From: Bacilli bacterium
GTDB taxonomy: Bacteria > Bacillota_I > Bacilli_A > RF39 > UBA660
NCBI GenBank assembly: GCA_017404385.1
Contig: JAFRCK010000022.1
Coordinates: 10,674 to 74,673, forward strand
Reading direction: 5' to 3'
DNA length: 64,000 bases
Shown here: piece after piece, positions 32,701 through 51,202 of the stretch
Position numbering within the stretch: the stretch's first letter is position 1
How the letters are laid out: each line of letters opens with the position of its first letter
The notes under the pieces: generated by a model
What the model saw: the letters and a program-made list of their open reading frames with translations, nothing else
Databases searched by the model: none
What the model was told of the DNA's origin: nothing
Made by a program: the position numbers and the translations under genes

Positions 32701-32739
32701 ATGTTATAATGAATATGGACTTAAAAAGAGGTGAATATA

Positions 32740-35112
32740 TTGGATTTTAAATATGATGCTTTTATAAGTTATAGGCACTGTGATTTAGATAAATTTGTAG
32801 CGGAAAATTTACATAAGATTTTAGAAACTTATGAATTACCTAAAAATGTTAAAGAAAAACTAGGTATAACAGGTAGAACAATTAGAAGAGTATTTAGAGA
32901 TCAGGATGAATTACCATTATCAAGTAATTTAGAAGATCCAATAATTGATTCATTAAAAAATTCTAAATACTTAATAGTTATTTGTTCACCAAGATTAAAA
33001 GATTCTTTATGGTGTAAAAAAGAAATAGAGACTTTTAAAAAACTAAGAGGTAGAAAAAATATATTTTGTGTATTAATTGAAGGTGAACCAAAAGATTCAT
33101 TTCCAGAAGAAGTACTTTATGATGAAGAAGAAAAAATATTAAAAAATGGTAAAAAGAAAAAAGAAAAAGTATTAGTAGAACCACTAGCGGCAGATGTTAG
33201 AGGAGAAACAAAAAAAGATGTATTGAAGAAATTAAAAGAAGAAAAACTTAGATTAATCGCACCAATGTATAATTTAGACTATGATGATTTAAAACAAAGG
33301 CATAAAATAAGAAGACAAAAAAGAATACTAATCATTTCATTAATAGCGGCATCATTTTTATTCTTACTAGCTCTTTATACATCTATTATGCTTATTAAGA
33401 TTAATTCACAAAAGAATACTTTAAGATTACATCAAGCAGAATCACTATCAACTAAATCTAAAGAATCATTAAAAAATGATAATAGATATGATGCGATTAA
33501 TTATTCATATCAAGCTTTAACTGAATTTGATGGAGTTAATATGCCCTATACATCAGAAGCTGAATATGAGTTAGTAGAAAGTTTAGGATTATATGATGTA
33601 GGATCTTCATATAAAAATATTTCTGAATTAAAAACAGATGGAGTTGCGACATTTATTAAAACTAGCGATAATAATGAATATGGTTTAGTATATGATGAAT
33701 CTGAAAAACTAACTTTATTTAATACTAAGACAATGAAAGTTATAGATAACTATGATTTAAATGGAACATTTGATGAAGAATCATTTTCATTCCTGGATAA
33801 TGATAGATTTGCCTATATAAATAAAGAAGGGAATATAAATATTATTTCTATTAAAGATGGTAAATTAATAAAAGAAATAGAAAAGAAAGATGAAAAATAT
33901 AAATCAGTTATAGGTAGTAAAGACTATTTATCATATATAGATAAAAAGAATGTATATGTTTATAATTTAAAAGAAGATAAAGTAGTAGGTAGTATTTCAA
34001 CAAACGATAAATTTATAGATGATTTATATTATTCTGATAATGATGAATATTTATTCGCAACTACTACAGATGATAGTTTTAATGTAGATGAAGAAGACTA
34101 TTTAGAAGTTCATGTAATAGAATTAAAAACTGCTAAAGAAATTAATTCCACTAGAATAGATGCTAGTTATGTATCAGGAATGTTAACTAAAAATGGTAAT
34201 CTTTATATGCTTTTAAATAGATCATATGGTACAGAGTTTAGTATGATTTCGGTATCATATAATTATACTTCTGGTGATACTAATTGGACTAGGATATTCG
34301 AAGGTAATTATGGTAGATTTATAACTAAATCATATCCAGAAGATATTAATCATATTGTAGTAGTTAATTATCAAACTGTTAATATTTTAGATGGTGATTC
34401 TGGAGAAGTAGTAGAAGTCTTTAATTTAGATGATGAAATAATAAATATATATTCAAATCTAAATAAAGAACTTTATCTAGCTTTCTTAAAAAATGGTTCT
34501 GTTAATTATCTAAGCATGGAAAGTAGAAAGAGTTATGAACTTCTAGGTAAATATGAATTTAATATAGATAATTATTCTAAAGTAGCGTTATCTAAAGATG
34601 GATTCTTATTAATACCTAATAATGAAAACAGAGTAGTATTATATGAAACAAAGTCAAATAAAGATATTAAAAGTGTAGATATGAAATTTGATTTTGTTAA
34701 AGATGATTCAATAAAAATAACTGATTATGATAAGATTAAAGAAGAATATGATATAAAAAATAAAAGCTTAGTAGAAAAAATATTTTATGATGATAAAAAA
34801 GAATTATTATTTGTAAATTATACTAATGAAGATTTAGTTATATATAATGTTAAAGATAAAAAACAATTAAACAAAATAGAAAAAATTGGTAAAGTAAATC
34901 ATTATTTTGGAAAAGATAAGTATGGTAGAATCTATATTGGAGATAATTCAAATTCATATATAATAGATAATTATGAAAAAGTAGGACACATAAAAGGATT
35001 AATAAAATTAGAAAAAGATAAAGTATATATTTCTAATGATGAGAAGTTCTATTCTATAAAGATTTATAATTTAAACGAAGTATTAAAAGAAGCCAAAGAT
35101 TATTTAAAATAA
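32740..35112 (+). CDS. TIR-domain protein with TM helix and large C-terminal beta-propeller-like domain
   Basis: N-terminal YDAFISYRH, LIVICSP and SLWCKKEIE (TIR motifs including the conserved Glu context). TM helix ILIISLIAASFLFLLALYTSIMLI at about aa 200. About 570 further residues carry recurring blade-like strands (VYVYNLKEDK, VVLYETKSNK, LVIYNVKDKK). Start is TTG at 32740 or GTG at 32731. Confidence 0.75.
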   Translation: MDFKYDAFISYRHCDLDKFVAENLHKILETYELPKNVKEKLGITGRTIRRVFRDQDELPLSSNLEDPIIDSLKNSKYLIVICSPRLKDSLWCKKEIETFKKLRGRKNIFCVLIEGEPKDSFPEEVLYDEEEKILKNGKKKKEKVLVEPLAADVRGETKKDVLKKLKEEKLRLIAPMYNLDYDDLKQRHKIRRQKRILIISLIAASFLFLLALYTSIMLIKINSQKNTLRLHQAESLSTKSKESLKNDNRYDAINYSYQALTEFDGVNMPYTSEAEYELVESLGLYDVGSSYKNISELKTDGVATFIKTSDNNEYGLVYDESEKLTLFNTKTMKVIDNYDLNGTFDEESFSFLDNDRFAYINKEGNINIISIKDGKLIKEIEKKDEKYKSVIGSKDYLSYIDKKNVYVYNLKEDKVVGSISTNDKFIDDLYYSDNDEYLFATTTDDSFNVDEEDYLEVHVIELKTAKEINSTRIDASYVSGMLTKNGNLYMLLNRSYGTEFSMISVSYNYTSGDTNWTRIFEGNYGRFITKSYPEDINHIVVVNYQTVNILDGDSGEVVEVFNLDDEIINIYSNLNKELYLAFLKNGSVNYLSMESRKSYELLGKYEFNIDNYSKVALSKDGFLLIPNNENRVVLYETKSNKDIKSVDMKFDFVKDDSIKITDYDKIKEEYDIKNKSLVEKIFYDDKKELLFVNYTNEDLVIYNVKDKKQLNKIEKIGKVNHYFGKDKYGRIYIGDNSNSYIIDNYEKVGHIKGLIKLEKDKVYISNDEKFYSIKIYNLNEVLKEAKDYLK

Positions 35113-35125
35113 AAAAGGAGGAAAT

Positions 35126-36100
35126 ATGAAAAAGAGATTTTTAATATTAATTTTATTAATAGTAGGATTATTTACTATAACTGGATGTGGTTGTAGTAAA
35201 AAAACAAATGAAGATACAAAAAATAAAAAGGAAATAATAACACCACTAATGTATAAAGTAACAAAAGAAGGAAGTAGTAATACAATTTATATACTTGGTA
35301 CAATTCATGCCGGAAGTTTAAAAAATACAGAATTTGCTAAATATGTAACTAAAGCATTTGATGAAAGTCATTATGTAGCCGCTGAAATTGACAATGAAGA
35401 AGACGAATCTTTAGATGAAGTTCTTGAACAATTAGAAAAATTCACATATGATGGGGATGATACTATTAAGAATCATATGTCGTCAGAAGAAAATTATAAT
35501 AAACTAATGAAATATGTAGAAGATAATAATTTAGAAATAGAATTAATAGATAAAGAAAAATTAAACTTAGAATACTATTCTAGGTCATTAACACAAGTTG
35601 TTATAGAAAAATCAGGTTTAACTGCTGAAGAAGGAATAGATGAATATTTTGTTAATATGGCTAAAAAAGAAAAAAAGAATTTCTTAGTTGTTGAAGGTAC
35701 TGAATTCCAATCAGAAGTATTAGCTAGTCTATCTGATAAATTTTATGAAAATATGATAATAAGTGCAATTGAAAATTTAGATGAACAAATAAAAGAATTA
35801 AAGGACTCTTTTGAAATTTGGAAAAAGGGTAATGAAAAAGAAATATGGAAAGATGATGGTTCATCAATAAAAGAAGAAGATAAATCTAAATATAGTGAAG
35901 AAGATATTAAGGCAGCAGAAGAATTTGACGAAAAAATATTATATTCTAGAAATATAACTATGACTGATAAATTAGAAGAATACTTTAAAGATAATAAAGA
36001 TGTATTTTATATGGTAGGACAAGATCATGTTATAGGTGATAGAGGAATAGTATCATTATTAAGACAAAGAGGATATACTGTAACAAAAATATCAAAATAA
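35126..36100 (+). CDS. TraB/GumN (TIKI-like) family lipoprotein
   Basis: Lipobox LFTITGC and the family N-terminal motif TIYILGTIHAG. Starts 13 nt after the TIR gene stop. Confidence 0.65.
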   Translation: MKKRFLILILLIVGLFTITGCGCSKKTNEDTKNKKEIITPLMYKVTKEGSSNTIYILGTIHAGSLKNTEFAKYVTKAFDESHYVAAEIDNEEDESLDEVLEQLEKFTYDGDDTIKNHMSSEENYNKLMKYVEDNNLEIELIDKEKLNLEYYSRSLTQVVIEKSGLTAEEGIDEYFVNMAKKEKKNFLVVEGTEFQSEVLASLSDKFYENMIISAIENLDEQIKELKDSFEIWKKGNEKEIWKDDGSSIKEEDKSKYSEEDIKAAEEFDEKILYSRNITMTDKLEEYFKDNKDVFYMVGQDHVIGDRGIVSLLRQRGYTVTKISK

Positions 36101-36480: not shown

Positions 36481-36518
36481 TTTAAGTTGATATATTTGCT
36501 TTTAGTAATAAATAAAAT

Positions 36519-36590
36519 AAGATTAATAAAACTAGTATAAACTAGTTGATTATGATACTATGACTAATAAACTTAGGGGGATTATAATAT
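36519..36590 (+). repeat. array repeat R0 (short form, one core)
   Basis: AATAAAACTAGTATAAACTAGTTGATTATGAT matches the family consensus AATAAAACTAATATAAATTGGTTGATTACGAT. Runs into the RBS of the ORF at 36591. Confidence 0.7.
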
Positions 36591-37270: not shown

Positions 37271-37502
37271 ATGACATATGACCAGGAAACTATATACTAA
37301 TAATTGATTACGGTTTATAGTAACTTTTGTAGAAATCCTTTATTTATAAAGCTTTGTAAAGATTAACATCTTGCATGTTTATACTAAAATATATAAAAAA
37401 TGATGATAATTAGTGAAAATAGAGTGATTTTAAGTAAAATCAGATTAGAAATTGACATAGTGAGAACGGTTAGTTAAGACCAGATGAAAGGAGATGAGAA
37501 TC
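37271..37502 (+). repeat. array repeat R1 (long form, two cores)
   Basis: Degenerate left module. Core TTGATTACGGTT at 37304 and second core GTGAGAACGGTT at 37460 (156 bp apart). Promoter-like module, and hairpin TGATTTT-AAGT-AAAATCA at 37425-37442. Confidence 0.75.
37363..37390 (+). promoter_or_regulatory. promoter-like element inside R1
   Basis: TTAACA-N16-TAAAAT. The same arrangement is found at the same offset in R2 (39292), R5 (41500, with ATAGCA as -35) and R6 (42311). Confidence 0.45.
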
Positions 37503-38540
37503 ATGGCAAATAATTTAGTAATTAGAAGCAGTAGTGCGGAGTTTTTGATATTTGAGAGACAAACACATGATATGGGAATTCAAGTTAGATTTGAAAATGG
37601 AGATTTATGGTTAACTCAAAAAGCTATGAGTGAATTATATGATTGTACTACTGATAATATTTCTTTACATTTAAAAAACATTTATAATGACTACGAACTT
37701 AATAAAAATTCAACTACTGAGGAATTCTCGGTAGTTCAAAAAGAAGGAAATAGAAAAGTAAAAAGAAATATATTATATTATAATTTAGATGCAGTCATTT
37801 CGGTTGGATATAGAGTTAATTCTGATAAAGCAATTCAATTTAGACGATGGGCAACGAATATATTAAAAGAGTTTTCCAAAAAAGGATATATTATTGACAA
37901 ACGAAGAATGGAAAATGGTGCATTTTTTGATGAGGATTATTATGATTCATTATTAGCTGAAATAAGAGAAATTAGATTATCAGAAAGAAGATTCTATCAA
38001 AAGATAACTGATATATATGCTACTAGTATAGATTATGATTCTAAAGCACCAACAACTATTAAATTTTTTAAAAAAGTTCAAAACAAAATGCATTATGCAG
38101 TATCTCATCAAACAGCAGCTGAAATAATATATAATCGTGCTGATTCAGAAAAAGATAATATGGGACTTACATCATGGAAGAATTCTCCAAATGGGAAAAT
38201 TTTAGAAACCGATGTTGTTATTGCTAAAAACTATTTATCTAAAGATGAATTAGAAAGTTTAGAGAGGATAGTTTCTGCATTTTTAGATTTAGCAGAGAAT
38301 AGAGCTAAAAGAAATATTCCAATGACAATGGAAGATTGGTCATCAAGAATTGATAAATATTTACTTGCTGATGATTTGGATATATTAAAAGATGCAGGAA
38401 AAATATCTCATGAAATAGCTTGTGATAAAGCATTATCTGAATTTGAAAAATATAGAATAAAACAGGATAAATTATATAAATCTGATTTTGATTTATTAAT
38501 AGAAGAAGGAATTTCATTTAAAAAAAATGATGAAATTTAA
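37503..38540 (+). CDS. RhuM-family protein
   Basis: VRFENGDLWLTQKAMSELYDCTTDNISLHLKNIY, YNLDAVISVGYRVNSDKAIQFRRWATNILKEF and SERRFYQKITDIYATSIDYD are characteristic of RhuM. The ATG at 37503 is better spaced from AAAGGAG than the ATG at 37494. Confidence 0.8.
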   Translation: MANNLVIRSSSAEFLIFERQTHDMGIQVRFENGDLWLTQKAMSELYDCTTDNISLHLKNIYNDYELNKNSTTEEFSVVQKEGNRKVKRNILYYNLDAVISVGYRVNSDKAIQFRRWATNILKEFSKKGYIIDKRRMENGAFFDEDYYDSLLAEIREIRLSERRFYQKITDIYATSIDYDSKAPTTIKFFKKVQNKMHYAVSHQTAAEIIYNRADSEKDNMGLTSWKNSPNGKILETDVVIAKNYLSKDELESLERIVSAFLDLAENRAKRNIPMTMEDWSSRIDKYLLADDLDILKDAGKISHEIACDKALSEFEKYRIKQDKLYKSDFDLLIEEGISFKKNDEI

Positions 38541-38618
38541 AATTAATTATAAGAATTACTTATAAGTTGAGGTTAAACTAACAAAAATAACTTGTATGTT
38601 GGAGATGATGAAGTAAAT

Positions 38619-39197
38619 ATGATATTGTATGTAACTAAGAAAACTAAAGAGAGATTAAATATTCCTATGATAGATGAATTAAGTGATATATCTAAAAATA
38701 ACGCATCAATAGTTTTAAATAATGAGGAAGACACGGAATTACTTAAATGGGGAATTAAAATCTTTTATATGGATAGAAGAAAATGTTTGCAAGCCGTCAA
38801 TTTTGCTTCAAAACTAACTATATATTTATTTGACATTCATAATGATAGTATTGAATATATTGGTGATGCAATGGCAAATTATATGTATCATATATATGAT
38901 AATGATGAAAAAATGACAAATTTATTAAACAGATTATTTAATGAACATTCACTTTGTGTTTTTTCTAATTTAACAGATAAAACAGCAATTTCAACTTTAA
39001 ATTATAATGAACGTTGCTATGTCAATACATATAGATTTTATGATTACATTGAAAATAATACATTAAAAACAATAGAAATAAATAAAGATGTTAATTTTGA
39101 CAATTTATTAACTGTAAAAATTAATGGTAAAAGAGAATATATAGTTCCAGGTGAATATTTTAAAGAACTATTAACAAATTATTATAAAAGGAGTTGA
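38619..39197 (+). CDS. hypothetical protein sharing a cassette with RhuM
   Basis: No array repeat separates it from the RhuM gene; only 51-78 nt containing the hairpin TTATAAG-AATTA-CTTATAA. Start is ATG at 38619 or TTG at 38592. The stop lies inside the R2 left module. Confidence 0.5.
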   Translation: MILYVTKKTKERLNIPMIDELSDISKNNASIVLNNEEDTELLKWGIKIFYMDRRKCLQAVNFASKLTIYLFDIHNDSIEYIGDAMANYMYHIYDNDEKMTNLLNRLFNEHSLCVFSNLTDKTAISTLNYNERCYVNTYRFYDYIENNTLKTIEINKDVNFDNLLTVKINGKREYIVPGEYFKELLTNYYKRS

Positions 39198-39428
39198 TCC
39201 AAATGAATGAAAGTAAAACTAATATAAATTGGTTGATTACGATTTATTTAACCCCTTTAAGAAATCCTTTATTTACAAGGCTTTTCGAGAATTAACATCT
39301 TACATGTTTTATATAAAAATACTTAAAAATTGATGAAAATTAGTAAAAAAGGCTATTTTTAATTAAAAATAAGGTGGAAATTACTAAGGTGATTACACCT
39401 TTTAACTAGATAAAATGAGGTGATTAGA
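39187..39428 (+). repeat. array repeat R2 (long form)
   Basis: AAAGGAG-N9-ATGAATGAAAGTAAAACTAATATAAATTGGTTGATTAC. Cores at 39233 and 39389 (156 bp apart). TTAACA-N16-TAAAAA at 39292-39319. Palindrome TTTTTAATTAAAAA at 39356-39369. Confidence 0.8.
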
Positions 39429-40121
39429 ATGTATTTATATAAGAAAAATGATAAGTCAATTACTATTTATTCTTTTGTTCCTAATAAAGAAGAATTGATT
39501 AAATTAAAAAAAAGGTATCTAGAAGATATAAAAAGTGTAATTCTTCATATTAATGATAATGACACAGAGGAATTATTGTTTAGTAGTCCAACTATTATGT
39601 TTTATGCTTTAGATAGAAAAGAAACTAATGGTAAGATAACATACATAGAGGAAGAAAAAAATGATAAAAATATTTCTAGGTATATTAATGGAGAATTTGA
39701 TTCTTTAGATCCTTTATGTATTATTGGTGATACGGTTAATAAAAAATCTTCTTATAGTGGCGAATTGTATAATTGTGATAGCGCTTTACTATTTACTGGT
39801 GGTTATTATTACAATAATGAATTTATAACTAATGATGGAATATTATTAACCGGATATTTAGCAGATTTTCAACCATTATTAAGTAGTGATATAAGTAATG
39901 TTCTTTTTCCAGATACTTTTAGATATTTAAGTGATGAAATAATAGATTCCTTAAAAATATTTAGTTGTAAAAAAGAACGCATAATAAAATTGGATGATTT
40001 AAAATTTATGCAAGAACATGGACTAATTCAAATTAATGATAGTCTTCAAGATACTTTTGAAAAAAGTGAAGAAGTTTTAAATAGTTATAATAAAGTTAAA
40101 AAGTTAACTCAAAAAATGTAG
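39429..40121 (+). CDS. cassette ORF, hypothetical protein
   Basis: The ATG at 39429 is 6 nt after GAGGTG. No motif recognised. Confidence 0.5.
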   Translation: MYLYKKNDKSITIYSFVPNKEELIKLKKRYLEDIKSVILHINDNDTEELLFSSPTIMFYALDRKETNGKITYIEEEKNDKNISRYINGEFDSLDPLCIIGDTVNKKSSYSGELYNCDSALLFTGGYYYNNEFITNDGILLTGYLADFQPLLSSDISNVLFPDTFRYLSDEIIDSLKIFSCKKERIIKLDDLKFMQEHGLIQINDSLQDTFEKSEEVLNSYNKVKKLTQKM

Positions 40122-40141: not shown

Positions 40142-40216
40142 ATGAATGAAAATAAAACTAATATAAATCGGTTGAGAACAATTTAGTCAAGACTAGTTAA
40201 AAAAGAGGTGAATAAC
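40142..40216 (+). repeat. array repeat R3 (short form, one core)
   Basis: ATGAATGAAAATAAAACTAATATAAATCGGTTGAGAACAATTTAGTCAAGAC runs directly into the RBS AGAGGTG. Confidence 0.8.
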
Positions 40217-40840
40217 ATGAGTTTTAAAGAAGAAATAAATGAATTAGAATTATTAAGATTTGAAAGTGATTATATTATAAAAAAAGGGAATCTTCCTATT
40301 CTTTTTACTGCACCTCATACTATGAAACAAATAAGAGAAGATGGTTGTGAAAAATTAAGCGAACCATATACAAAAGCTATAGCTTTATATTTAAATAAGC
40401 ATTTTAATGTTAACTGTATGATTAAAATAAATGATACTGGGTTAGATGCTAATAGAAATCCAAGAGATGAATTTAAAACAGAATTGCTTAGATTTATAAA
40501 AGATAATAATATTAAATTAGTAATAGATCTACATGGTTCAAAAAAATCACGAGACTTTGATATCGAGTTTGGAACACTTAATAATTTATCCGCAGATTTT
40601 TCTACTATAAAAGAATTAGAAGAAGCATTTAATGAAAATGGCATTTCTAATATAATATATAATGACCCTTTTAAAGGAGGCGCTATTACTGAATATGTTT
40701 ATGGTTTAAAAGATGTAGATGTTATTCAAGTAGAAATAAATGGTAGATATAGAGATTATAATAATTTAGAAGAATTAGAAAAACTAATAAAAAGTCTTGA
40801 AAATTTTATAAAACAATATAAAGAATATATAAATAGATAG
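40217..40840 (+). CDS. cassette ORF, possible N-formylglutamate-amidohydrolase-fold protein
   Basis: FTAPHT near the N-terminus and VIDLHGS in the middle loosely resemble FGase-family motifs. Weak call. Confidence 0.3.
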   Translation: MSFKEEINELELLRFESDYIIKKGNLPILFTAPHTMKQIREDGCEKLSEPYTKAIALYLNKHFNVNCMIKINDTGLDANRNPRDEFKTELLRFIKDNNIKLVIDLHGSKKSRDFDIEFGTLNNLSADFSTIKELEEAFNENGISNIIYNDPFKGGAITEYVYGLKDVDVIQVEINGRYRDYNNLEELEKLIKSLENFIKQYKEYINR

Positions 40841-40852: not shown

Positions 40853-40926
40853 ATGAACGAAAATAAAACTAATATAAATTGGTTGATAACAATTTAGTCA
40901 AGACCAAGAAAAAATGAGGTGATGTT
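40853..40926 (+). repeat. array repeat R4 (short form, one core)
   Basis: ATGAACGAAAATAAAACTAATATAAATTGGTTGATAACAATTTAGTCAAGACC, then the RBS TGAGGTGA. Confidence 0.8.
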
Positions 40927-41418
40927 ATGATTAAATTATTTGATAGTAATATGAATGAAGTGACTATCAAAAGAGAAATGTATCAATGGGATATTTTTCC
41001 ACTTGACAGCTTTTCCGCTTTCGGGTTTGTTATGAATAGTGAATATTTTCAAACAAGTGAACATGCGTTTCAATATTTAAAGTTTGTTGATACCAATAAA
41101 GAGATAGCTAATAAAATTAAAGAATCATTTTCACCTAATGATGCAAGAAATATTGCTCATGAAAATAAAGAATATAGATTATCTAATTGGTCAGATGTTA
41201 AGTATCAAAATATGGAAAAAATTTTAAGATTAAAAGTAGAACAGAATCCTATTGTAAAAGATGTACTTCTAAATACAAAAGATTATATAATTGTTGAAAA
41301 TTGTATTGATGAAGATACTGATTGGGGATTAGATAGTAATAATCAAGGAGATAATAATTTAGGTAAAATTTGGATGAAAATCCGTGATGATATAAAAGGA
41401 GTTGATCCAAATGAATGA
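40927..41418 (+). CDS. cassette ORF, NADAR (YbiA/DUF1768)-family protein
   Basis: FSAFGFVMNSEYFQTSEHAFQYLKF and the C-terminal NNLGKIWMKIRD match the NADAR domain signature. The stop lies inside the R5 left module. Confidence 0.6.
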   Translation: MIKLFDSNMNEVTIKREMYQWDIFPLDSFSAFGFVMNSEYFQTSEHAFQYLKFVDTNKEIANKIKESFSPNDARNIAHENKEYRLSNWSDVKYQNMEKILRLKVEQNPIVKDVLLNTKDYIIVENCIDEDTDWGLDSNNQGDNNLGKIWMKIRDDIKGVDPNE

Positions 41419-41640
41419 AAATAAAACTAATATAAACTGGTTGATTACAATTAATTTAAACCCCTTTGAAAAGTATTGTAAAATAAGGTAAAACTCAAAA
41501 TAGCATCTTACATGTTTTATATAAAATATGTTAAAATTGATAAAAATTAGTAAAAAATCACTATTTTTAAGTGAAAATAGTATAGGAATTAATAAGGCGA
41601 TTACAGAAGTTAAACCCCCTAGAAATTTGAGGTGAGATTC
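41395..41640 (+). repeat. array repeat R5 (long form)
   Basis: AAAGGAGTTGATCCAAATGAATGAAAATAAAACTAATATAAACTGGTTGATTAC. Cores TTGATTACAATTAATTTAAACCCC at 41441 and GCGATTACAGAAGTTAAACCCC at 41597 (156 bp apart). Hairpin TCACT-N7-AGTGA at 41558-41574. Confidence 0.8.
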
Positions 41641-42207
41641 ATGATATTACAGTATATTGATAATGAAGAATACAAGAATAAGATAGAAAAGTTATATTTA
41701 GAATCTTTTCCAGAAGAAGAAAGATTTCCATTTTGGATATTAGATGAATGTTCTAAAGAAGATAAGTCTGATTTATTAGCTGTATTAGATAATGATAAAT
41801 TTATTGGAATGTGTTATTTAGTTAATTGCAACGAGGTGTATTATCTTATGTATTTAGCAGTTGAACCAGAACTTAGAAGTCAAAATTATGGTTCTCAAAT
41901 ACTAATGGATTTAAAAGACAAATATAAAACATTATTTTTATCCATTGATGAACCTATAGATGATTTAAGTATAAGACGTAAAAACTTTTATTTAAGAAAT
42001 GGATTTTATGATACTAACAAGTATTACGAAGATACAGGTGTTAATTATGAAGTATTATGCACAAATCCTGAATATGAAATAACAAATGATAATATGAAAA
42101 TGAGATATATTAATATGACAAATAATCCTGAATTATCTAATGTAATAGCAAATACATTTAATGCAGATTTTGTTAATTTAAGAGATAAGAATAAACACTT
42201 AAAATAA
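41641..42207 (+). CDS. cassette ORF, GNAT-family N-acetyltransferase
   Basis: LAVEPELRSQNYGSQILMDL (acetyl-CoA binding Q/R-x-x-G-x-G/A) and the later YLRNGF. Confidence 0.65.
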   Translation: MILQYIDNEEYKNKIEKLYLESFPEEERFPFWILDECSKEDKSDLLAVLDNDKFIGMCYLVNCNEVYYLMYLAVEPELRSQNYGSQILMDLKDKYKTLFLSIDEPIDDLSIRRKNFYLRNGFYDTNKYYEDTGVNYEVLCTNPEYEITNDNMKMRYINMTNNPELSNVIANTFNADFVNLRDKNKHLK

Positions 42208-42441
42208 AGGAGTTGAGTGGGATGAATGAAAATAAAACGAATATCAATTGGTTGATTACGGTTTTTCGTAACTTTTGGAGAAAGCCTTTATTTATAAGAC
42301 TTTGTGAGAATTAACATCTTGCATGTTTATGATAAAATATAATAAAAATTGATAAAAGATAGTATAAAAAGACTAAAATAAGTTAAAAAAAGTATAGGAA
42401 TTACGATATTGATTACGCTAGTAAAAGAGGAGTGAAATAAT
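42206..42441 (+). repeat. array repeat R6 (long form)
   Basis: AAAGGAG-N9-ATGAATGAAAATAAAACGAATATCAATTGGTTGATTAC. Cores at 42252 and 42409 (157 bp apart). Confidence 0.8.
42311..42338 (+). promoter_or_regulatory. promoter-like element inside R6
   Basis: TTAACA-N16-TAAAAT with an extended -10 TG (TGATAAAAT). The 30-codon mini-ORF starting at 42222 stops at the TAA inside this -35 hexamer. Confidence 0.45.
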
Positions 42442-43032
42442 ATGAATTATGAAAGGGAAATAACTGTAGAAGTTTGTGTTGATTTAAGCAGTTTAATTAA
42501 AATACTTGAAGAAAATGGCTTTGAATTAAAAGAAGTTTATGATTTAAATGATATATATTTAATTAATAAGAATGATAAGGAAGATGATTACTTATCAATG
42601 TTAAACAAATGTGTTTTAATTAGAGATATTATTGAAGAAGATAAAGAAACTAAATTGTTAACTTATAAATATAAAGAGTATAATGAAAATAAAGAAATTA
42701 CAAAACAAGGAAAAGTAAAAGTAAAAATTGACGATATCAACAATTCTAAATTATTATTTGAAAAATTAGGCTTTGAGGAGTTAATTAGAATAAATGACCA
42801 TATGCTTGTATACGCAACAGATAAAGATGAATTGGTTATTCAAAATGTAAATGGTAAGCATATTTATATTGAATTAGAAGATAAATGTAATTATGCAAAT
42901 AGATTTTATAATTCTATAGATGAGATGAAAAAAGTAATTACTGATAATAATATTCCAATTAAGAATAATGATTTTTTCGTTAAAAAGGCTGAAATTGAAT
43001 TACAAGAAACTTATAATAAAGTAGGTGAATAG
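42442..43032 (+). CDS. cassette ORF, CYTH-like (class IV adenylate cyclase / triphosphate tunnel) protein
   Basis: N-terminal EREITVEV (ExExK-like strand), KHIYIELED near the C-terminus, and a length of about 195 aa fit CYTH/CyaB-like proteins. Moderate-to-weak call. Confidence 0.4.
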   Translation: MNYEREITVEVCVDLSSLIKILEENGFELKEVYDLNDIYLINKNDKEDDYLSMLNKCVLIRDIIEEDKETKLLTYKYKEYNENKEITKQGKVKVKIDDINNSKLLFEKLGFEELIRINDHMLVYATDKDELVIQNVNGKHIYIELEDKCNYANRFYNSIDEMKKVITDNNIPIKNNDFFVKKAEIELQETYNKVGE

Positions 43033-43034: not shown

Positions 43035-43300
43035 ATGAATAATGAAGAAAAAAACTTACAAAAAACTAATATAAATTGCTTGAGCATGATTTATCTAACC
43101 CCTTTAACAAATCCTTATAAAACAAGGAAAAACAAGAATTGAATCTTACATTTTTTTATAAAAAATGAGTAAAAATTAACAAAAAACACCAAAAATTATT
43201 AAAAATGGTGCTTTTTTTATATATTTTTAATAAGGTGATGTTTCCAGCTAACCCCATTGAAAAATAAGGGCTTTTTAACTTTTACTGAGTGTTCGGAAAA
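43035..43300 (+). repeat. array repeat R7 (long form, divergent subfamily)
   Basis: AAAACTAATATAAATTGCTTGAGCATGATTTATCTAACCCC. Second core GTGATGTTTCCAGCTAACCCC at 43235 (155 bp on). Hairpin CACCA-N14-TGGTG followed by a T-run at 43187-43218. The sequence after the second core resembles the start of another unit. Confidence 0.65.
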
Positions 43301-43397
43301 TAGTAATATTGCGATGTAATATGATTAATATTAGATTTTCATGATTATATGGTATAATATTATTGATTTATTGCAAATTTTTGATAAGAGGTTTATT

Positions 43398-43832
43398 ATG
43401 GAATATTTGGTTGAAAGTCATTTAGGTGGTTATTATGTTAGTAATTTAGATCCAGAAGTAATAACTGCGTATTGCGAATCTTGTGGTGATTCTGATTGGA
43501 TACTACTGTCTTGGGAAAAAGGACATATGATGGAAACTCTAATTCAATATTTTTCAGAATTAAAACATTCAACGGAGAATATAGAAAAAAACCGACAAGC
43601 AGGAATTACTAAGCAAGAGGCAATTGAAAGTGCTTTGTATGAATATTCTTTTAAAGATAAAAATATAATTGAAGCTCTTTATGAAGAAAAAATTATTTTG
43701 GAAGATGAATATAAACAATTATTAAAAGAAAATCTTCAAGCACAAAAAAATCAAATAACTTTAGTGTGTGAAGTTTATCCAAGAGAAGTCAAAAAAGTAT
43801 TAAAAAAGCAAAAAAAGAAAAATAAGAGATGA
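43398..43832 (+). CDS. cassette ORF, hypothetical protein
   Basis: The ATG at 43398 follows AAGAGG, with its own extended -10 TGGTATAAT at 43350-43358. The upstream ATG in the track (43341) precedes the promoter-like element. Confidence 0.45.
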   Translation: MEYLVESHLGGYYVSNLDPEVITAYCESCGDSDWILLSWEKGHMMETLIQYFSELKHSTENIEKNRQAGITKQEAIESALYEYSFKDKNIIEALYEEKIILEDEYKQLLKENLQAQKNQITLVCEVYPREVKKVLKKQKKKNKR

Positions 43833-43861
43833 TCGTAAGATTAAGATATTACGAACTGATG

Positions 43862-43884
43862 AGTAGGAGAAATCCTACTTTTTG
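43862..43884 (+). terminator. rho-independent terminator
   Basis: AGTAGGA-GAAA-TCCTACT followed by TTTTT. Core matches 32677-32695 at 18 of 19 positions. Confidence 0.7.
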
Positions 43885-43971
43885 TTATATAGTAGAGGCC
43901 ATATGTCCTAACAACTATATCAATATTTTTGATGTTGCAATATCTAATCCAATAAAAATGACTTAAAAATG

Positions 43972-44001
43972 GACGAAGCTATACTAAATTTCGTCTTTTT
44001 T
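43972..44001 (+). terminator. rho-independent terminator
   Basis: GACGAA-N12-TTCGTC followed by TTTTTT. Confidence 0.5.
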
Positions 44002-44021
44002 ATGCTATAATTGATTAGAAA

Positions 44022-44230
44022 TGGAGTGATTCCTATGGATAATAATACTAATATTAATTGTTCGATAGGAAATTAGGCAACATTTTTCGAAAACTCCCAT
44101 AAAATAAGGGTAAAACAGCTATCAAGTAATTACATTTTTTTAATAAAATTTGTAAAAAATAGCAAAAAATACCCAAAAATACCTTAAAAATGGCACAGCA
44201 TTTAAGGGGTGGTGTTCGGACGCAACACTT
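44022..44230 (+). repeat. array repeat R8 (terminal, divergent)
   Basis: GGAGTGATTCCTATGGATAATAATACTAATATTAATTG, then CATAAAATAAGGGTAAAAC and ATTACATTTTTTTAATAAAATTTGTAAAAAATAGCAAAAAATACCC, colinear with R5 and R7. Confidence 0.6.
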
Positions 44231-44296: not shown

Positions 44297-45175
44297 ATGA
44301 AAGAGGAAGTCGTAGAATTAAATGTTAAAGACATATCAGATTTTCCAAAGCATCCATTTAAAATAAACAATGATTTAAATTATGAAGAACTTAAAAACAG
44401 TATTATTGAAAGTGGAGTTCTTGTTCCTACTATTGTAAGAAAGAAAGAAGACGGAAAATACGAAATGTTATCTGGACATAGAAGAAAGAAAATTTGTGAA
44501 GAACAAGGTATTAAAAAAATACCATGTATTGTCAAAGATATTTCAGATGAGGAAGCTATCATATTAATGGTTGATTCTAATCTTCAAAGAGATAAGATAC
44601 TACCAAGTGAAAAAGCAATAGCTTATAAAATGAAATATGAAGCGATTAAACATCAAGGTAAAACTTCCGACCCAATGGGTTCGAAGTTATCAATCGAAGA
44701 TATTGTAAAAGACACAAATGATAGTGCTACTCAAATAAGAAGATATATAAGATTAAATTATTTAATTCCAGAATTATTACAGTTAGTAGATGATACAGTA
44801 TTAAAAGATAAACGAGCTACTTTAACAATGGGATTAAGACCAGCTGTAGAATTATCTTATTTATCTAAAGATGATCAAGAACTTGTTTATGAAGAAATAA
44901 CTTATGAAGATTTAACTCCAAGTCATGTACAAGCTAAAAAAATAAGAGAACTTGGAGAAAAAGGTGAATTAGACTCAGATGTACTTGAGTCTATTTTTTT
45001 GGAACCAAAACCCAATCAAAAAAATAGAATATCTTTAAATGAAGAAAGAATACGAAAAGTATTACCCAAAGATATTAAGGATTATAAAATTGAAGATTTT
45101 ATAATAAAAGCAATTGAGAGTTATTCTAAAACACTCTCTAATGAAAGGGGTGATTCATATGATTTAGATATTTAG
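44297..45175 (+). CDS. ParB/Srx-like nuclease-domain protein
   Basis: ParB N-terminal domain motifs HPFKI, VLVPTIV and MLSGHRRKKICEEQG. Confidence 0.7.
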   Translation: MKEEVVELNVKDISDFPKHPFKINNDLNYEELKNSIIESGVLVPTIVRKKEDGKYEMLSGHRRKKICEEQGIKKIPCIVKDISDEEAIILMVDSNLQRDKILPSEKAIAYKMKYEAIKHQGKTSDPMGSKLSIEDIVKDTNDSATQIRRYIRLNYLIPELLQLVDDTVLKDKRATLTMGLRPAVELSYLSKDDQELVYEEITYEDLTPSHVQAKKIRELGEKGELDSDVLESIFLEPKPNQKNRISLNEERIRKVLPKDIKDYKIEDFIIKAIESYSKTLSNERGDSYDLDI

Positions 45176-45230
45176 CACCCTACAATAATTATTTTGTTTC
45201 TGATAGGATTTATGTAAGAGGTGAAGAAGA

Positions 45231-45854
45231 ATGAAAAAAGTTATTATTAGCTTAATCATTTTATTTCTTATTGCTTCAGGATTCTTAACTTATAAATTTA
45301 TATTTATGAGAAATAAAGATGAAAAAGAGCCAGTAGTTGAATCTACAGTTATTGAATCTAAAGTTGATTCAAAAGAAATGGAGGAAGAAGAAAATGAACC
45401 TATTACAGAAATTATTGAAAACGATAATAATATTGTTAAAGACAACAGCATTAATGACAATAATGCTAATTCGAACAATATGGAGAGCAATACTGTTCGT
45501 AACTCTAATGTCGTAAAAGAAAATACAACAACTAATAATGTTAAAAAGGAAGAACCTAAACAAGAATCTGCTCAAGTACAACAACCAGTAGTACAACCTG
45601 AACCAGAACCACCAAAACATGAACCAACAGCATGGGAAAGTTTAGGAATAAGTGAATATGATTATTATCATTCACCAATGTGGAGTTGGGCTAGAGTTGA
45701 TTATAAAATAGAAGATTATGGATCATTTGAAGCAACACATCAAGCTTGTATTGATGCTGGATATCAATTAGAAGACATAATTAGTTTTTCATGTACAAAC
45801 ATTAATAGTTATTCGGGTGCTTATTTAGGAGATATGCTCAGAGTAAAAAAATAA
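45231..45854 (+). CDS. membrane-anchored protein with low-complexity linker
   Basis: N-terminal helix, N/E/V-rich and PVVQPEPEPP linker, Cys-containing C-terminal domain. Confidence 0.45.
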   Translation: MKKVIISLIILFLIASGFLTYKFIFMRNKDEKEPVVESTVIESKVDSKEMEEEENEPITEIIENDNNIVKDNSINDNNANSNNMESNTVRNSNVVKENTTTNNVKKEEPKQESAQVQQPVVQPEPEPPKHEPTAWESLGISEYDYYHSPMWSWARVDYKIEDYGSFEATHQACIDAGYQLEDIISFSCTNINSYSGAYLGDMLRVKK

Positions 45855-45870
45855 TGAAAGGAAAAACAAT

Positions 45871-48654
45871 ATGAAATCGAAATTATTTAAGTGTGCTATG
45901 ATGAGCATGCTTTTTTTATTGTCAATTTTTAATATTACAACAGTACATGCTGAAAAATATACTGGACAAGCTATATGGCCTAGTGAATATATCAGCAATA
46001 TTTATATTAAAAAAGTAAAACCAGATGGTTATACAAAGTATCAACAAGCAAGATTTATTAGAAGAAGTGAAGATAATAAATTTGTTTATTGTTTACAGCC
46101 ATATACAGATATTGATAATAATTTACCTTATTATGATGTAATAAGAGAGGATTATGAAAGAGTTTTAGGTTTTAGTGAAGAACAATGGGAAAGAATATCT
46201 TTACTAGCTTATTATGGATATCAATATGACCAAAATGGATATAATCATAATGATCAAAAATGGTATGTTATTACTCAAGTTATGATTTGGAGAACAACAA
46301 ATCCTGAATCTCAAATATTTTTCACAGATACTCTAAATGGAAATAGAATATCTAAGTTTGATAGTGAAATAGCAGAACTTGAAAGTTTAGTAGCAAATCA
46401 TTATAAAAGACCACAATTACAAAGTGGATTAGTTGTTCCTATTGGAAGTACAATTGAAGTTAATGATAGTAATAATGTATTAAGTAATTATAAAGTTACT
46501 TCTACAGATAAAGTGTCAGCTTCAATTAATGGAAATACTTTATCAGTAACTGCAAATAGTATTGGTGAAGGATCTATTACTTTTGAAAAGAAAGCAACTA
46601 AATATGAAATACCACCTATAGTATATTTTAGTGATCATTCACAAAATGTATTTAGAGTTGGTAACTTTGACCCAGTAGTAAGTAAATTTACTTTAAAGGT
46701 TATAGGCGGAAAAGTTACACCTAAGAAAGTTGATGTTGAAACAAGAACAAATACACCTCAAGGTGAAGCTAAATTAGGTGGAGCAGTATATGGAATATAT
46801 AAAGTAGATGGAACTAGAATAGGTTCTGTAACTACTAAAGATGATGGAGCTAATACTTCAGATTATTTACCAGAACTTGGTAGATTCTACTTATTAGAAG
46901 AACAACCATCAGAAGGATATTTATTAGATAGTAATAAATATTATTTTGAAATAACAGAGGATAATTTAAATCCTGAAGTACAAGTATTTGAACAAGTAAT
47001 CAAAAGAGATTTTGAATTTACTAAAGTATATGCTAGTGCTGAAACTCAAATAATGGAACCAGAAGTAGGTATTAAATTTGGAATCTATAATAATAAAAAT
47101 GAACTTGTTGAAGAAGTAACTACTGATTCACAAGGAGTATTTAGATTTACTTTACCATATGGGACTTATACTGTTAAACAATTAACTACAACTAAAGGTC
47201 ATGAAAAAATTGATGATTTTACTGTTGAAGTAAAAACTACTGGAGAAGTAGTTAAAAAAGTTATTTCAAATGCTCCAATTACTGCTAAGTTAAGAGTTGT
47301 TAAAATTGACTCTGAAACAAAAGAAGTTATTAAGAGAAGTAATATCAAATTTAAAATATTTGATGTTAAAAATAATGAATATGTATGTCAAACAATTACA
47401 TATCCAGCTAAAGAAACTATCTGTGTATGGGAAACAGACAAAGATGGTGAATTTACAACAGCTTATCCATTAATGACTGGAACTTATAGACTTGAAGAAG
47501 TTGATCAAGTAATTGATGGTTATTTATGGAATAGTCAATCACATGAATTTAGTATTGATGAAGATTCAAATTTAAGAACTGATTCAGAGTATGGAATTAT
47601 ATTCGATACTGATTTTGAAAACACTAGAGTAAAAGGTGAAATCAAAATTGAAAAAACTGGAGAAGTTGCTGAACTTACTGAAAATGGATTTGAATTTAAA
47701 AATCAACCATTAGAAGGAGTTAAATTTGGATTATATGCTTTAGATGATATTGTATGGAATGGTAAAACAATATATACAAAAGATTCTTTGGTATCTGAAA
47801 AACTAACTGATAGTGAAGGTAAAATTGTATTTGATGAATTATATCTTGGTAAGTATTATGTAAAAGAAATTGAAACATTAGATAATTATGTTTTAGATGA
47901 AAATACATATGAAGCTGAACTAGTATATAAAGATCAATATACACCAACTATCTTCTATTCAGAAGCTATCTTAAATGTATTAAAAACTGGTAAATTAGAA
48001 TTTACTAAAACTGATATATCTGAATCTAAAACACTTCCAAATACATTAATCGAAATTTATACAGAAGATGATGAACTAGTATTTAGTGGAAGAACTGATG
48101 AAGAAGGTAAAATTGTTATAGAAAGACTTCCTCAAGGAAAGTATTATATTCTTGAAAAGGAAGCCCCAGAAGGTTATAAACTTAATGAAGAAAAAATGCC
48201 ATTTGAAATAAAAGAAAATGGTGAAGTAGTTAAATCAACTATGAAAGATGAAGACATAACTGGAACACTTGAATTCACTAAATTAGATTTTTCAAATGAT
48301 AATCCACTTCCAAACACTTTAATTGAAATATACAATGCTGATACAGAAGAATTAGTATTCTCTGGAAGAACTGATGATAATGGAACTATTACTATAGAAA
48401 AACTAAAATATGGTAAATATTACATTTTAGAGAAAGAAGCACCAGAGGGATATGAATTAAATCCTGAAAGAATGTATTTTGAAATTAAGGAAGATGGAGA
48501 AATTGTTAAATCTATAATGAAAGATAAGCAAATAGTTAAAGTACCTAATACTGAAGCTAATGATTATAAAGAATTATTATTTAGTGGAATTACTTTACTA
48601 GTTTGTGGAGCAGGTGTGATTATTTATGGAATCAAAAATAAAAAGAAAAAATAA
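45871..48654 (+). CDS. surface adhesin: thioester domain plus CnaB/SpaA-type repeats, sortase-anchored
   Basis: Signal peptide. Thioester-domain motifs FVYCLQP (Cys codon at 46090) and ITQVMIW. Repeated units of the form TGxLEFTKxD...LPNTLIEIY...FSGRTD..G.I.IE.L..GKYYILEKEAPEGY. C-terminal VPNTEA followed by a hydrophobic helix and KNKKKK. Confidence 0.8.
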   Translation: MKSKLFKCAMMSMLFLLSIFNITTVHAEKYTGQAIWPSEYISNIYIKKVKPDGYTKYQQARFIRRSEDNKFVYCLQPYTDIDNNLPYYDVIREDYERVLGFSEEQWERISLLAYYGYQYDQNGYNHNDQKWYVITQVMIWRTTNPESQIFFTDTLNGNRISKFDSEIAELESLVANHYKRPQLQSGLVVPIGSTIEVNDSNNVLSNYKVTSTDKVSASINGNTLSVTANSIGEGSITFEKKATKYEIPPIVYFSDHSQNVFRVGNFDPVVSKFTLKVIGGKVTPKKVDVETRTNTPQGEAKLGGAVYGIYKVDGTRIGSVTTKDDGANTSDYLPELGRFYLLEEQPSEGYLLDSNKYYFEITEDNLNPEVQVFEQVIKRDFEFTKVYASAETQIMEPEVGIKFGIYNNKNELVEEVTTDSQGVFRFTLPYGTYTVKQLTTTKGHEKIDDFTVEVKTTGEVVKKVISNAPITAKLRVVKIDSETKEVIKRSNIKFKIFDVKNNEYVCQTITYPAKETICVWETDKDGEFTTAYPLMTGTYRLEEVDQVIDGYLWNSQSHEFSIDEDSNLRTDSEYGIIFDTDFENTRVKGEIKIEKTGEVAELTENGFEFKNQPLEGVKFGLYALDDIVWNGKTIYTKDSLVSEKLTDSEGKIVFDELYLGKYYVKEIETLDNYVLDENTYEAELVYKDQYTPTIFYSEAILNVLKTGKLEFTKTDISESKTLPNTLIEIYTEDDELVFSGRTDEEGKIVIERLPQGKYYILEKEAPEGYKLNEEKMPFEIKENGEVVKSTMKDEDITGTLEFTKLDFSNDNPLPNTLIEIYNADTEELVFSGRTDDNGTITIEKLKYGKYYILEKEAPEGYELNPERMYFEIKEDGEIVKSIMKDKQIVKVPNTEANDYKELLFSGITLLVCGAGVIIYGIKNKKKK

Positions 48655-49237: not shown

Positions 49238-49293
49238 TTTTGCACAATATTTATTTATCTTTATGATGATATAATGTTTTATGAGGTGTTAGT

Positions 49294-49755: not shown

Positions 49756-49783
49756 CTCTTTTTATTTTGGAAGGAGGTTAATT

Positions 49784-50802: not shown

Positions 50803-50803
50803 T

Positions 50804-51088: not shown

Positions 51089-51202
51089 AGGTAATTTTTT
51101 TATTGAAAGGTGGTGGTTCTATAGAATGAAAAAAATTCAGGAATAGTCAACTGAATTAAATAAAATGGCTAAATATTTTGATTTATAGAAGGAGGATTAA
51201 AA

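Follow-up and report, generated by a model that had tools for sequence, protein, structure and literature searches.

Tn5253 integrates in rbgA downstream of nucleotide 20 of the coding sequence (CDS), where a duplicated attachment (att) site, made up of the upstream sequence and the first 20 coding nucleotides, restores the gene (PMC8571831), and streptococcal integrative and conjugative elements (ICEs) with conjugation of the Tn5252 or Tn1549 type encode tyrosine integrases aimed at the same rbgA 5′ end (PMC4701971). Here, we describe an array of repeats, numbered R0 to R8, in a 64,000-nucleotide stretch of DNA from a member of the Bacilli (RF39, UBA660; assembly GCA_017404385.1, contig JAFRCK010000022.1, forward-strand positions 10,674 to 74,673), which is referred to below as the window. 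With a probability that we put at roughly two in three, the long repeats of this array are junctions of small integrated gene cassettes stacked upstream of rbgA, each with a duplicated attachment core and a probable promoter arm. No paper describing such arrays at rbgA was found in the literature.

The locus resembles the Tn5253 and Tn5252 ICEs in its target gene and in the end of that gene that is used, in an att sequence that joins upstream sequence to the first codons and so restores the CDS, in a boundary at W-F/Y-P-G-H-M, and in the presence of a conjugative element at one of the copies. It differs from them in being built of units of 0.3 to 3.4 kb without integrase or transfer genes, of which at least 12 can lie within 8 kb (locus L007; L-numbers denote related loci from other genomes), in its occurrence in uncultured, very A+T-rich gut Bacilli, and in that no IntTn5253-like integrase was found here. 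The pneumococcal RbgA protein presumably starts MATIQWFPGHM; if so, the boundary of Tn5253 would fall at the same relative position as the one described below.

A second precedent is provided by cis-mobilizable elements (CIMEs) and tandem accretion, as in ICESt1/ICESt3 (PMC5704250) and in S. suis (PMC5053989), where attL and attR are kept, integration and transfer genes are absent, and elements stack in tandem by reuse of the site, all of which is also seen here. CIMEs have been described as decayed ICEs or integrative and mobilizable elements (IMEs), usually one or two per site (PMC5704250), whereas the units described here are uniform, modular and numerous, carry a promoter arm, and recur across genomes in different orders. 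In its sequence organization, the array is a case of tandem accretion at an att site and consists of CIME-like units.

Results

Repeat cores and the rbgA start

The left 45 nt of the junction contains AAAGGAG, an ATG, and the codons N-E-N-K-T-N-I-N-W. In about 20 units, this start extends into a protein of about 285 amino acids that is RbgA/YlqF (TIGR03596, 341.6 bits against a cutoff of 208.2) and aligns to Bacillus subtilis YlqF (PDB 1PUJ) from I-x-W-F-P-G-H-M on, while most other copies open a mini-open reading frame (mini-ORF) of 14 or about 30 amino acids, MNENKTNINWL.... In 27 related loci, the array runs into an intact rbgA whose product begins MNENKTNINW(Y/F)PGHMAK..., with RNase HII located 3′ of rbgA in several of these loci as recognized by eye from the translation. 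To judge from these codons, the left core is a copy of the rbgA/ylqF ribosome-binding site, ATG, and first ten codons. The Shine-Dalgarno (SD) sequence and the in-frame ATG are kept in 268 of the 287 core copies that were used to examine start codons. Furthermore, the codon changes in the 275 copies outside rbgA comprise 184 synonymous and 40 nonsynonymous changes; about 15% synonymous changes would be expected by chance, and this excess argues that the copies retain the ability to code for the RbgA N terminus. The window holds seven recognizable and two degenerate core copies and encodes rimM and trmD (recognized from their translations) as well as rplS and lepB (NCBIfam), which we take to be the usual neighborhood of rbgA.

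Among genomes sampled at one per species, the 22-nt core AAAACTAATATAAAYYGGTTGA is present in 108 stretches, with up to 7 exact matches per 8-kb stretch and 12 units in L007 when mismatches are allowed. The core-bearing genomes are rumen and gut metagenome-assembled genomes (MAGs) labeled Bacilli, Erysipelotrichaceae, Bacillales, Tenericutes or Clostridia, and the units are common to many MAG species from the guts of sheep, deer, goat, buffalo, reindeer, pig and human. In gut metagenomes, including those of sheep, word depth was 790 to 2260 for the bin that holds the R5 core (41166 to 41452) and 10 to 60 in the flanking cassettes; together with the assemblies from the source sample, which break at every repeat junction, this identifies the core as a very abundant repeat in these communities. 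Neither phage nor plasmid collections gave a megablast match to the array, and the core pattern was absent from viral contigs.

Cassette boundaries

The extent of a cassette was defined by comparing junctions pairwise. Those sharing the upstream 60 nt and differing downstream (n = 85) are identical to position +16 of the core and diverge from +17/19, and those sharing the downstream sequence and differing upstream (n = 176) match throughout from +15 rightward, their divergence starting upstream of about −28. By this comparison, a cassette is the sequence from TGG|TT... to the next ...AAATTGG, with a sharp common crossover point, and everything to the right of the core, promoter-like element and hairpin included, belongs to the downstream gene. 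The boundary lies after the Trp codon plus TT, just 5′ of the conserved F/Y-P-G-H-M motif.

Cassettes mostly carry a single gene. The same units recur in other genomes in different orders and with other neighbors, and the arm type is constant for a given gene, as illustrated by the CYTH-like gene of the window and of L002, L012, L026 and L096. All genes of the array share one orientation, and most junctions are without a terminator, the stop codon of the cargo gene lying inside or beside the SD sequence of the core. The 5′ arm that follows the core in a long unit consists, in order, of a left copy of a short site (termed X-Y), a short CCTT...AAGG, the promoter block, an A-rich stretch, the hairpin region, a right X-Y copy, and the ribosome-binding site of the cargo gene. 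The module between the left and right X-Y copies measures about 150 nt, and short units such as R3 and R4 are junctions with a single X-Y and without this module.

X-Y sites and 3′ arms

The X-Y site is about 20 nt long and type specific, with at least eight types (e.g., TGATTAC-N7-TTAACCCC, TGAGAAC-N5-AGTCAAGACC, and TGATTAC-N6-AGTAACT), and up to three direct copies occur per cassette. Left and right copies of the same unit scored 9.4 against each other, compared with 7.0 ± 0.2 when permuted (maximum of 7.6 in 200 permutations); scored as inverted repeats through the reverse complement, they reached only 5.6. The third copy, in the 3′ arm, scored 11.5 against the left arm of its own cassette and 8.1 against that of the next. 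Ahead of each X-Y copy lies an A/T-rich stretch with a loose resemblance to the 3′ part of the core. One cargo gene (91 to 96% identity) is preceded by a short unit in L016 and L041 and by a long one in L074, L015 and L007, so the module of about 150 nt has been gained or lost between two direct sites. Deletions between X-Y sites would account for the short units and for R1, and the X-Y sites may be arm-type or secondary recombination sites. Hybrid units with unlike left and right arm types are found in L068, L080 and L102 in addition to R1.

About 28 cassette ends have a longer 3′ arm made up of CCATATGACCTGG, the third X-Y copy, a terminator, an extended −10 TGCTATAAT, a ribosome-binding site, and the core; the single such arm of the window (43863 to 44061) lies ahead of a conjugative element led by a ParB gene. 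TGCTATAAT stands directly 5′ of rbgA in 9 of the 27 loci that end in the intact gene, and most of the remaining loci have a long unit among their last one to three cassettes. Where a terminator occurs, in an R7-type unit or a 3′ arm, a promoter comes before the next core (43863 to 44011 in the window; L012).

CCATATGACCTGG, which reads as the reverse complement of the P-G-H-M codons of rbgA, has 28 copies in related loci (e.g., L039, L063 and L081), with window copies of this inverted element at 43899 to 43908 and 37275 to 37286. It lies 144 to 158 nt upstream of a core copy, at the center of an imperfect palindrome such as ATAGTTTAAATGT-CATATG-ACCTGGAAACTAT in L042. In the unit that abuts rbgA, the two P-G-H-M copies enclose the terminator, promoter and start codon as inverted repeats of 13 nt.

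Promoter-like element

An earlier reading of the window (the original prediction) had placed a promoter-like element in each long repeat, at a constant offset from the left core and pointing toward the downstream gene. The strings on which it relied are present, namely TTAACA-N16-TAAAAT in R1 (37363) and, with TG, in R6 (42311), together with variants that have a −10 of TAAAAA in R2 (39292) and a −35 of ATAGCA in R5 (41500); R5 has an additional extended −10, TGTTAAAAT, at 41529 to 41537. The offset was borne out elsewhere, the block lying 77 nt past the core start in 82 of 87 homologous units, far beyond chance. The orientation and assignment to the downstream cassette were likewise upheld by the junction pairs, in which everything from core position +17/18 on stays with the downstream gene. 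R1 and R6 match a sigma-A promoter at 10 of 12 positions, with the TG in R6 in addition, and R2 is weak owing to its TAAAAA.

In an alignment of 76 nonidentical homologous units, an extended −10 of the form TGnTAnnnT is kept in 36, in two registers, and a −35/−10 pair spaced by 16 to 18 nt is found in 5 more; the −10 follows the pattern TAnnnT and is often extended by the Gram-positive TRTG. Among AGTAACT-type units, the −10 lies 16 nt past TTAACA and occurs as TAAAAT, TAATAT, TATAAT, TAGAAT or TGAAAT, and in other unit types a 10-nt insertion moves the extended −10, TRTGnTAAAAT, downstream. Ten of the 76 units have a run of at least six T residues after the hairpin region, and only 1 of these 10 has an extended −10. 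The most conserved block of the long units is ATCTTRCATGTTT, found in the window at 37368 to 37380, 39297 to 39309, 41505 to 41517, 42316 to 42328, and 43143 to 43155; it overlaps the −35 hexamer and is more conserved than it. The A-rich stretch flanking the hairpin was also conserved in the consensus of this alignment, as had been proposed. Together, these patterns make a sigma-A-type promoter facing the cargo plausible.

Hairpin region

Hairpins lie about 60 nt past the promoter strings. The proposal that every long unit has one was only partly sustained: hairpins were located in R1, R5 and R7, but R2 has an A/T-only palindrome (−2.1 kcal/mol, z −0.5), and the local fold of R6 (−1.2 kcal/mol, z −0.4) is no better than shuffles. 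R5 contains a better stem than the one first proposed, ACTATTTTT/AAAATAGT at 41559 to 41581 (−5.7 kcal/mol, z −2.4). In R7, the CACCA/TGGTG stem of 5 bp, its 14-nt loop and T7 (43187 to 43218) were not called by a terminator scan; among relatives, L002+3486 has an 11-bp stem (−12.4 kcal/mol, z −4.1) followed by T7. A terminator-like hairpin and T-run is found at this place in R7 and in about 10 of the 76 relatives.

The hairpin had further been read as a covarying stem, and the covariation check set beforehand came out against this, as RNAalifold on the 76 homologues gave 0 pairs. For the majority-type helix (ACTATTTT/AAAATAGT, alignment columns 67 to 74 with 81 to 88), 63.5% of cells pair, against 58.2 ± 1.3% when shuffled, and its covariation score of 0.208 compares with 0.220 and 0.216 for the same helix slid by +2 and +3. 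In the main subfamily of 36 units, an invariant T4/A4 core carries the pairing, and the two informative outer pairs hold in 44 to 47%. The different stems of R1, R2, R5 and R7 are distinct hairpins in distinct registers rather than compensatory versions of one stem, and the compensatory changes observed were single cases (ACC/GGT in L108 and a G-C pair in R1 where relatives have A-T).

Local structure exceeds that of shuffles across the 76 units (mean z −1.07, with 32% below −1.64), and plus-strand RNA folds better than minus-strand RNA in 57 of them, with 13% G-U pairs; this excess may be inherited, the units being related by descent. The proposed structured leader of about 110 nt was not supported, the predicted leader of 109 nt having a z-score of +0.77. 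As single-stranded DNA (ssDNA), the whole unit folds no better than shuffles (z +0.66 for the top strand and +0.17 for the bottom strand), and a search of Rfam at gathering thresholds gave zero matches. The hairpin is probably a lineage-variable local stem and not a conserved regulatory fold. In many long units (alignment A1 columns 64 to 88; e.g., L007, L013 and L040), the hairpin is overlapped by a mini-ORF, ATG ACT ATT TTT AAT RCA AAA TAG (MTIFNxK*), which has no ribosome-binding site ahead of it and does not occur in R2 or R5.

Organization of the array in the window

All elements of the array lie on the plus strand. R0 (36505 to 36549) is a degenerate rbgA-start core with a short-type arm, with the core pattern at 36528 to 36549 (3 mismatches) and a weak nhmmer match. 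Ahead of R1, CATATGACCAGG (37275 to 37286), an inverted copy of the rbgA P-G-H-M codons, is what remains of the 3′ arm of the cassette before it and is fused straight to the next cassette without a core; the homologous cassette end in L053 retains the terminator, promoter and core. R1 itself has a left X-Y of the TGATTAC..AGTAACT type (37305 to 37325), the promoter-like TTAACA-N16-TAAAAT (37363 to 37390; TTAACA at 37363 to 37368 and TAAAAT at 37385 to 37390) with the block ATCTTGCATGTTT at 37368 to 37380, a weak hairpin TGATTTT/AAAATCA (37425 to 37442; −3.5 kcal/mol, z −1.1), and a right X-Y of the TGAGAAC..AAGACC type (37461 to 37481). By its unlike X-Y types, R1 is a hybrid unit, and its layout is that of a deletion in which the 3′-arm X-Y of the preceding cassette was fused to the arm of the next with loss of the core. 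Cassette 1 (37494 to 39197) is predicted to encode a RhuM-family protein (37494 to 38540) and a DUF6933 protein (38592 to 39197), assigned by Pfam and matching the PADLOC candidate families PDC-S05 and PDC-S63.

The R2 core copy (39187 to 39232) has AAAGGAG, ATG and the codons N-E-S-K-T-N-I-N-W, and the R2 5′ arm (39233 to 39406) carries a left X-Y (39233 to 39255), the promoter-like string with the −10 TAAAAA (39292 to 39319), the A/T palindrome (39354 to 39371), and a right X-Y (39390 to 39406). It leads into cassette 2 (39420 to 40121), whose 233-amino-acid product has no confident family. The short unit R3 (40142 to 40193; core copy with the mini-ORF MNENKTNINRLRTI* and one X-Y, without a promoter module) precedes an N-formylglutamate amidohydrolase-like gene in cassette 3 (40208 to 40840), and the short unit R4 (40853 to 40905; core copy and one X-Y) precedes a NADAR-domain protein gene in cassette 4 (40927 to 41418).

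R5 has a core copy at 41395 to 41440 (E value of 7e-15) and a 5′ arm at 41441 to 41619, comprising a left X-Y (41441 to 41464), the promoter-like string (41500 to 41527), the additional extended −10 and hairpin given above, and a right X-Y (41598 to 41619), ahead of the GNAT acetyltransferase gene of cassette 5 (41632 to 42207). In R6, the core copy (42206 to 42251) is followed by an arm (42252 to 42421) with a left X-Y (42252 to 42273), TTAACA-N16-TAAAAT with TG (42311 to 42338), and a right X-Y (42409 to 42421); cassette 6 (42442 to 43032) encodes a CYTH/CyaB-like protein that falls below the family cutoff (NCBIfam TIGR00318, 38.4 bits against 58). The right X-Y of R6 lacks, at 42416, 12 nt (GACGCAGTAACT) that are present in contigs of run X5 and in the homologous units of L002, L012 and L096.

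R7 (43035 to 43255) comprises a core (43035 to 43079), a left X-Y (43080 to 43102), a degenerate promoter block (43143 to 43155), the terminator-like CACCA/TGGTG hairpin with T7, and a right X-Y (43236 to 43255); this unit type is also found in L024 and L073. Cassette 7 (43341 to 43832) encodes 163 amino acids with no family and has its own upstream region. The ORF is flanked by two small palindromic elements that are alike, TCGGAAAATAGTAATATTGCGA (43297 to 43320) and TCGTAAGATTAAGATATTACGA (43834 to 43858), and the TCGTAAGATTAAGATATTACGA-type palindrome recurs at many cassette ends elsewhere, just 5′ of the CCATATGACCTGG element. The 3′ arm of cassette 7 (43863 to 44011) contains a terminator (43863 to 43883), CCATATGTCC (43899 to 43908), an X-Y of the R7 right-site type (43930 to 43950), a second terminator-like hairpin (43972 to 44001), and the extended −10 TGCTATAAT (44003 to 44011). 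R8 (44023 to 44230) consists of an SD sequence, an ATG and a diverged core (MDNNTNINC...; 44023 to 44061), followed by the 5′ arm of the next element with its left (44062 to 44085) and right (44212 to 44230) sites.

Recombinases, the conjugative element, and neighboring genes

Tyrosine recombinases were sought with phmmer, using an XerD query, over stop-to-stop ORFs of the window and 110 related loci, and the sole match was an IS91-associated fragment in L033. As an integron-style integrase, this candidate was rejected, its homologues adjoining IS91 transposases (Zn_Tnp_IS91 and Y2_Tnp) and not cores. The L033 gene (1 to 465, minus strand) encodes a small tyrosine recombinase (Phage_int_SAM_4 and Phage_integrase), is divergent from the array, and is also found in L121 and L123 to L125; in these IS91-type elements, the integrase-like ORF is followed by a Zn_Tnp_IS91/Y2_Tnp transposase gene that is often frameshifted.

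Large serine recombinases (Resolvase, Recombinase and Zn ribbon) were found 1 to 2 kb downstream of a core and in the same orientation in three loci only: L013 (reverse complement, 7336 to 8000), L069 (reverse complement, 2727 to 3054 and 5410 to 6468), and L072 (7352 to 8000). In L013 and L069, the gene follows one that, judged by eye, resembles a uracil-DNA glycosylase gene and has its own terminator and a GATATAAT promoter. We also considered the CATATG-centered palindrome of the 3′ arm as a serine recombinase site and rejected it, since the recombinase-bearing sequence of L072 diverges from the window before that site and not at its center.

Directly past the last core copy, a conjugative element (44297 to 63087, plus strand) begins, with predicted genes for a ParB-like protein (ParB_N), a Cna_B adhesin, a sortase, SSB, a VirB4-like ATPase (DUF87), an M23 peptidase, a weak MobP2-like relaxase, and a TraG/VirD4 coupling protein. 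In L111/L112, a related element begins with a large serine recombinase and lies at a different site. Just upstream of the array, 32731 to 35112 encodes a 793-amino-acid protein that combines a TIR domain at its N terminus with a transmembrane-like segment and WD40/beta-propeller repeats and has weak matches in PADLOC (SAVED_TIR and PDC-S66), beside a TraB/PrgY-family protein (35126 to 36100). From translations only, three paralogous ORFs (1496 to 2224, 2234 to 2872, and 3642 to 4301) share a C-terminal ...FRDExM...KKNKKVLKxK, and the ORFs at 11206 to 12003 and 12404 to 13528 encode tandem repeats of about 35 amino acids (KQKIEDMIALGYTKEEVIKMTKS...).

Discussion

If the long repeats are junctions of cassettes integrated at the start of rbgA, the layout of the array would follow from the needs of that gene. 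Every cassette carries the core at its 3′ end, and whichever copy adjoins rbgA would restore the gene. A unit inserted before an essential gene must supply its translation start, which would explain why the SD sequence, ATG and codons are conserved, and transcription must reach rbgA, which would explain the shared gene orientation and the scarcity of terminators. The arm promoter would transcribe the cargo gene and read on through the next core, and such read-through would maintain expression of downstream cassettes and, in the end, of rbgA despite the insertions that had moved rbgA away from its native promoter. In R7-type units, a GC-richer stem and T-run would replace the weak hairpin, with no extended −10 and with a new promoter, TGCTATAAT, before the next core. 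Applied to the window, the R1 promoter would serve the RhuM and DUF6933 genes, the weak R2 promoter would drive three genes, with the short units R3 and R4 in between, and R5 and R6 would serve the GNAT and CYTH-like genes, respectively; R7 would stop transcription, leaving the ORF at 43341 to use its own start region, and TGCTATAAT would restart transcription into the conjugative element. Our best guess for the recombinase is the integrase of an rbgA-targeting conjugative or mobilizable element acting in trans, as for CIMEs (PMC5704250), and, more speculatively, the triplicate type-specific sites could be its arm-type sites. In assembled contigs, the joint of an excised circle would be indistinguishable from a tandem junction.

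Several observations weigh against this interpretation. The rbgA gene itself lies outside the window, past its end, so that the intact last copy is seen in the 27 related loci and not here; the right end of the conjugative element is also outside, and no core, integrase or rbgA was found in the 10 kb past the coupling protein gene. Apart from the L033 tyrosine recombinase and the serine recombinases in 3 loci, neither the window nor about 0.8 Mb of array-bearing loci yielded an integrase. Across the 8.4-kb array region, promoter-like matches numbered 64, compared with 71.6 ± 9.2 in shuffles; bare hexamer matches are thus at chance density in DNA of 24% G+C. The best-kept bases are those of the spacer block ATCTTRCATGTTT, and the −35 hexamer varies in at least 20 forms, which a protein-binding site would fit at least as well as a promoter. 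In addition, some contigs from RNA runs (eight runs, depth of 2 to 10) cross the promoter from upstream, which could reflect read-through or DNA carryover.

The conserved spacer block, the variable −35 hexamer and the chance density of promoter-like strings speak for the alternative that ATCTTRCATGTTT and the A-rich flank are mainly the protein-binding part of an attachment arm (an integrase arm-type site, or an excisionase or repressor operator) and that the hexamers are incidental. The position of the block between two direct att-like sites, like that of arm sites, is in keeping with this alternative, yet the downstream TGnTAAAAT keeps its T-A...T signature and TRTG in two independent registers, is missing from units with a T-run hairpin, and is lacking in short units that always stand behind another cassette of the same orientation; overall, we regard the alternative as unlikely. 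A comparably low probability is given to the view that no dedicated recombinase exists and that the repeats (the 45-nt core and the 150-nt module) are handles for homologous recombination after transformation or conjugation, like the promoter/stem-loop modules of T4-type phages. The absence of an integrase near most arrays, the hybrid units R1, L068, L080 and L102, which imply crossovers inside the module, and the deletions that have occurred between 20-nt X-Y repeats are all as this view would expect. A core duplicated in tandem, however, presupposes integration, the boundary coincides with the rbgA 5′ end, a documented site of the Tn5253 type, with a conjugative element adjoining the array, and the type-specific triplicate sites would be hard to account for through homology alone.

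The original prediction had combined an integron-like array with transcription of each cassette through a structured leader of about 110 nt containing a covarying hairpin, which could act as an attenuator, a processing site, or a fold recognized by a recombinase. The local hairpin propensity, the better folding of the plus strand and the single compensatory cases in L108 and R1 speak for it, and the first of these may reflect shared descent. Given that no pairs were called from the 76 homologues, that covariation is no better than in slid controls, that neither the leader nor ssDNA folds above shuffles, that Rfam gave no match, that no integron integrase was found, and that the arms are direct rather than inverted, we consider this explanation highly improbable. 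Still further down the scale, the units might be ssDNA elements of a conjugative leading region (Frpo-type promoters or single-strand origins), in line with the place of the array just upstream of the ParB-led element and with its single gene orientation; this seems extremely improbable, as no long imperfect hairpin is present, neither strand folds above shuffles as ssDNA, and the same arrays adjoin rbgA in chromosomes where no conjugative genes could be seen.

Junctions of integrated cassettes, the reading that we prefer, also change how the comparison with integrons is framed. The observation that the array differs from a classical integron holds; the integron framing itself is superseded by that of attachment sites at the rbgA start. 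As with integron cassettes, the genes are unidirectional and mostly single, a recombination site recurs, and cassettes are shared and reshuffled between genomes. Unlike in integrons, there is no IntI, attI or Pc, the site is a copy of the start of a host gene and not a folded attC, the repeated arms run in direct orientation and lack ssDNA structure, and many cassettes have their own promoters. The tycheposon islands of Prochlorococcus (bioRxiv 10.1101/2020.12.28.424599) are similar in their successive integrations at one host gene, in which older elements are pushed inward, and in their partial target copies and degenerate remnants; they use the 3′ end of tRNA or tmRNA genes and have integrases there, whereas the target here is the 5′ end of a protein gene, so that each core copy must also supply a translation start.

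The T4-type phages offer a further parallel. Their promoter early stem-loop (PeSL) modules consist of an intergenic promoter and stem-loop between small accessory genes, carry early promoters, and are shuffled by homologous recombination. The present arrays share with them a repeated promoter/stem-loop unit and differ in that the main exchange point is the att core. Taking these comparisons further, uncultured gut Bacilli may carry an integron-like platform for gene capture at the rbgA start, derived from the attachment site of an integrative element and combining minimal, usually single-gene cassettes bounded by 45-nt cores, up to three direct, type-specific att-like sites per cassette, a recombinase acting in trans that would insert, excise and reshuffle the cassettes, and a switchable 150-nt promoter module through which a cassette is either self-expressed or served by read-through; we offer this wider interpretation tentatively and at less than even odds.

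In sum, the arrays bear on how such genomes are annotated and assembled as well as on how elements exploit essential genes. The 14- to 30-amino-acid mini-ORFs beginning MNENKTNINWL... are truncated rbgA starts and not genes, and the repeats break short-read assemblies at each junction. For elements that occupy the 5′ ends of essential genes, the rule suggested is that each unit brings a translation start together with either a promoter of its own or one that acts by read-through. The cargo includes defense-island candidates (RhuM/PDC-S05, with weaker matches for the DUF6933 and NADAR proteins). To our knowledge, integrons are essentially absent from Bacillota, and an array that stockpiles and reshuffles single accessory genes at the start of a housekeeping gene would fill that gap in a large uncultured group of the rumen and human gut.

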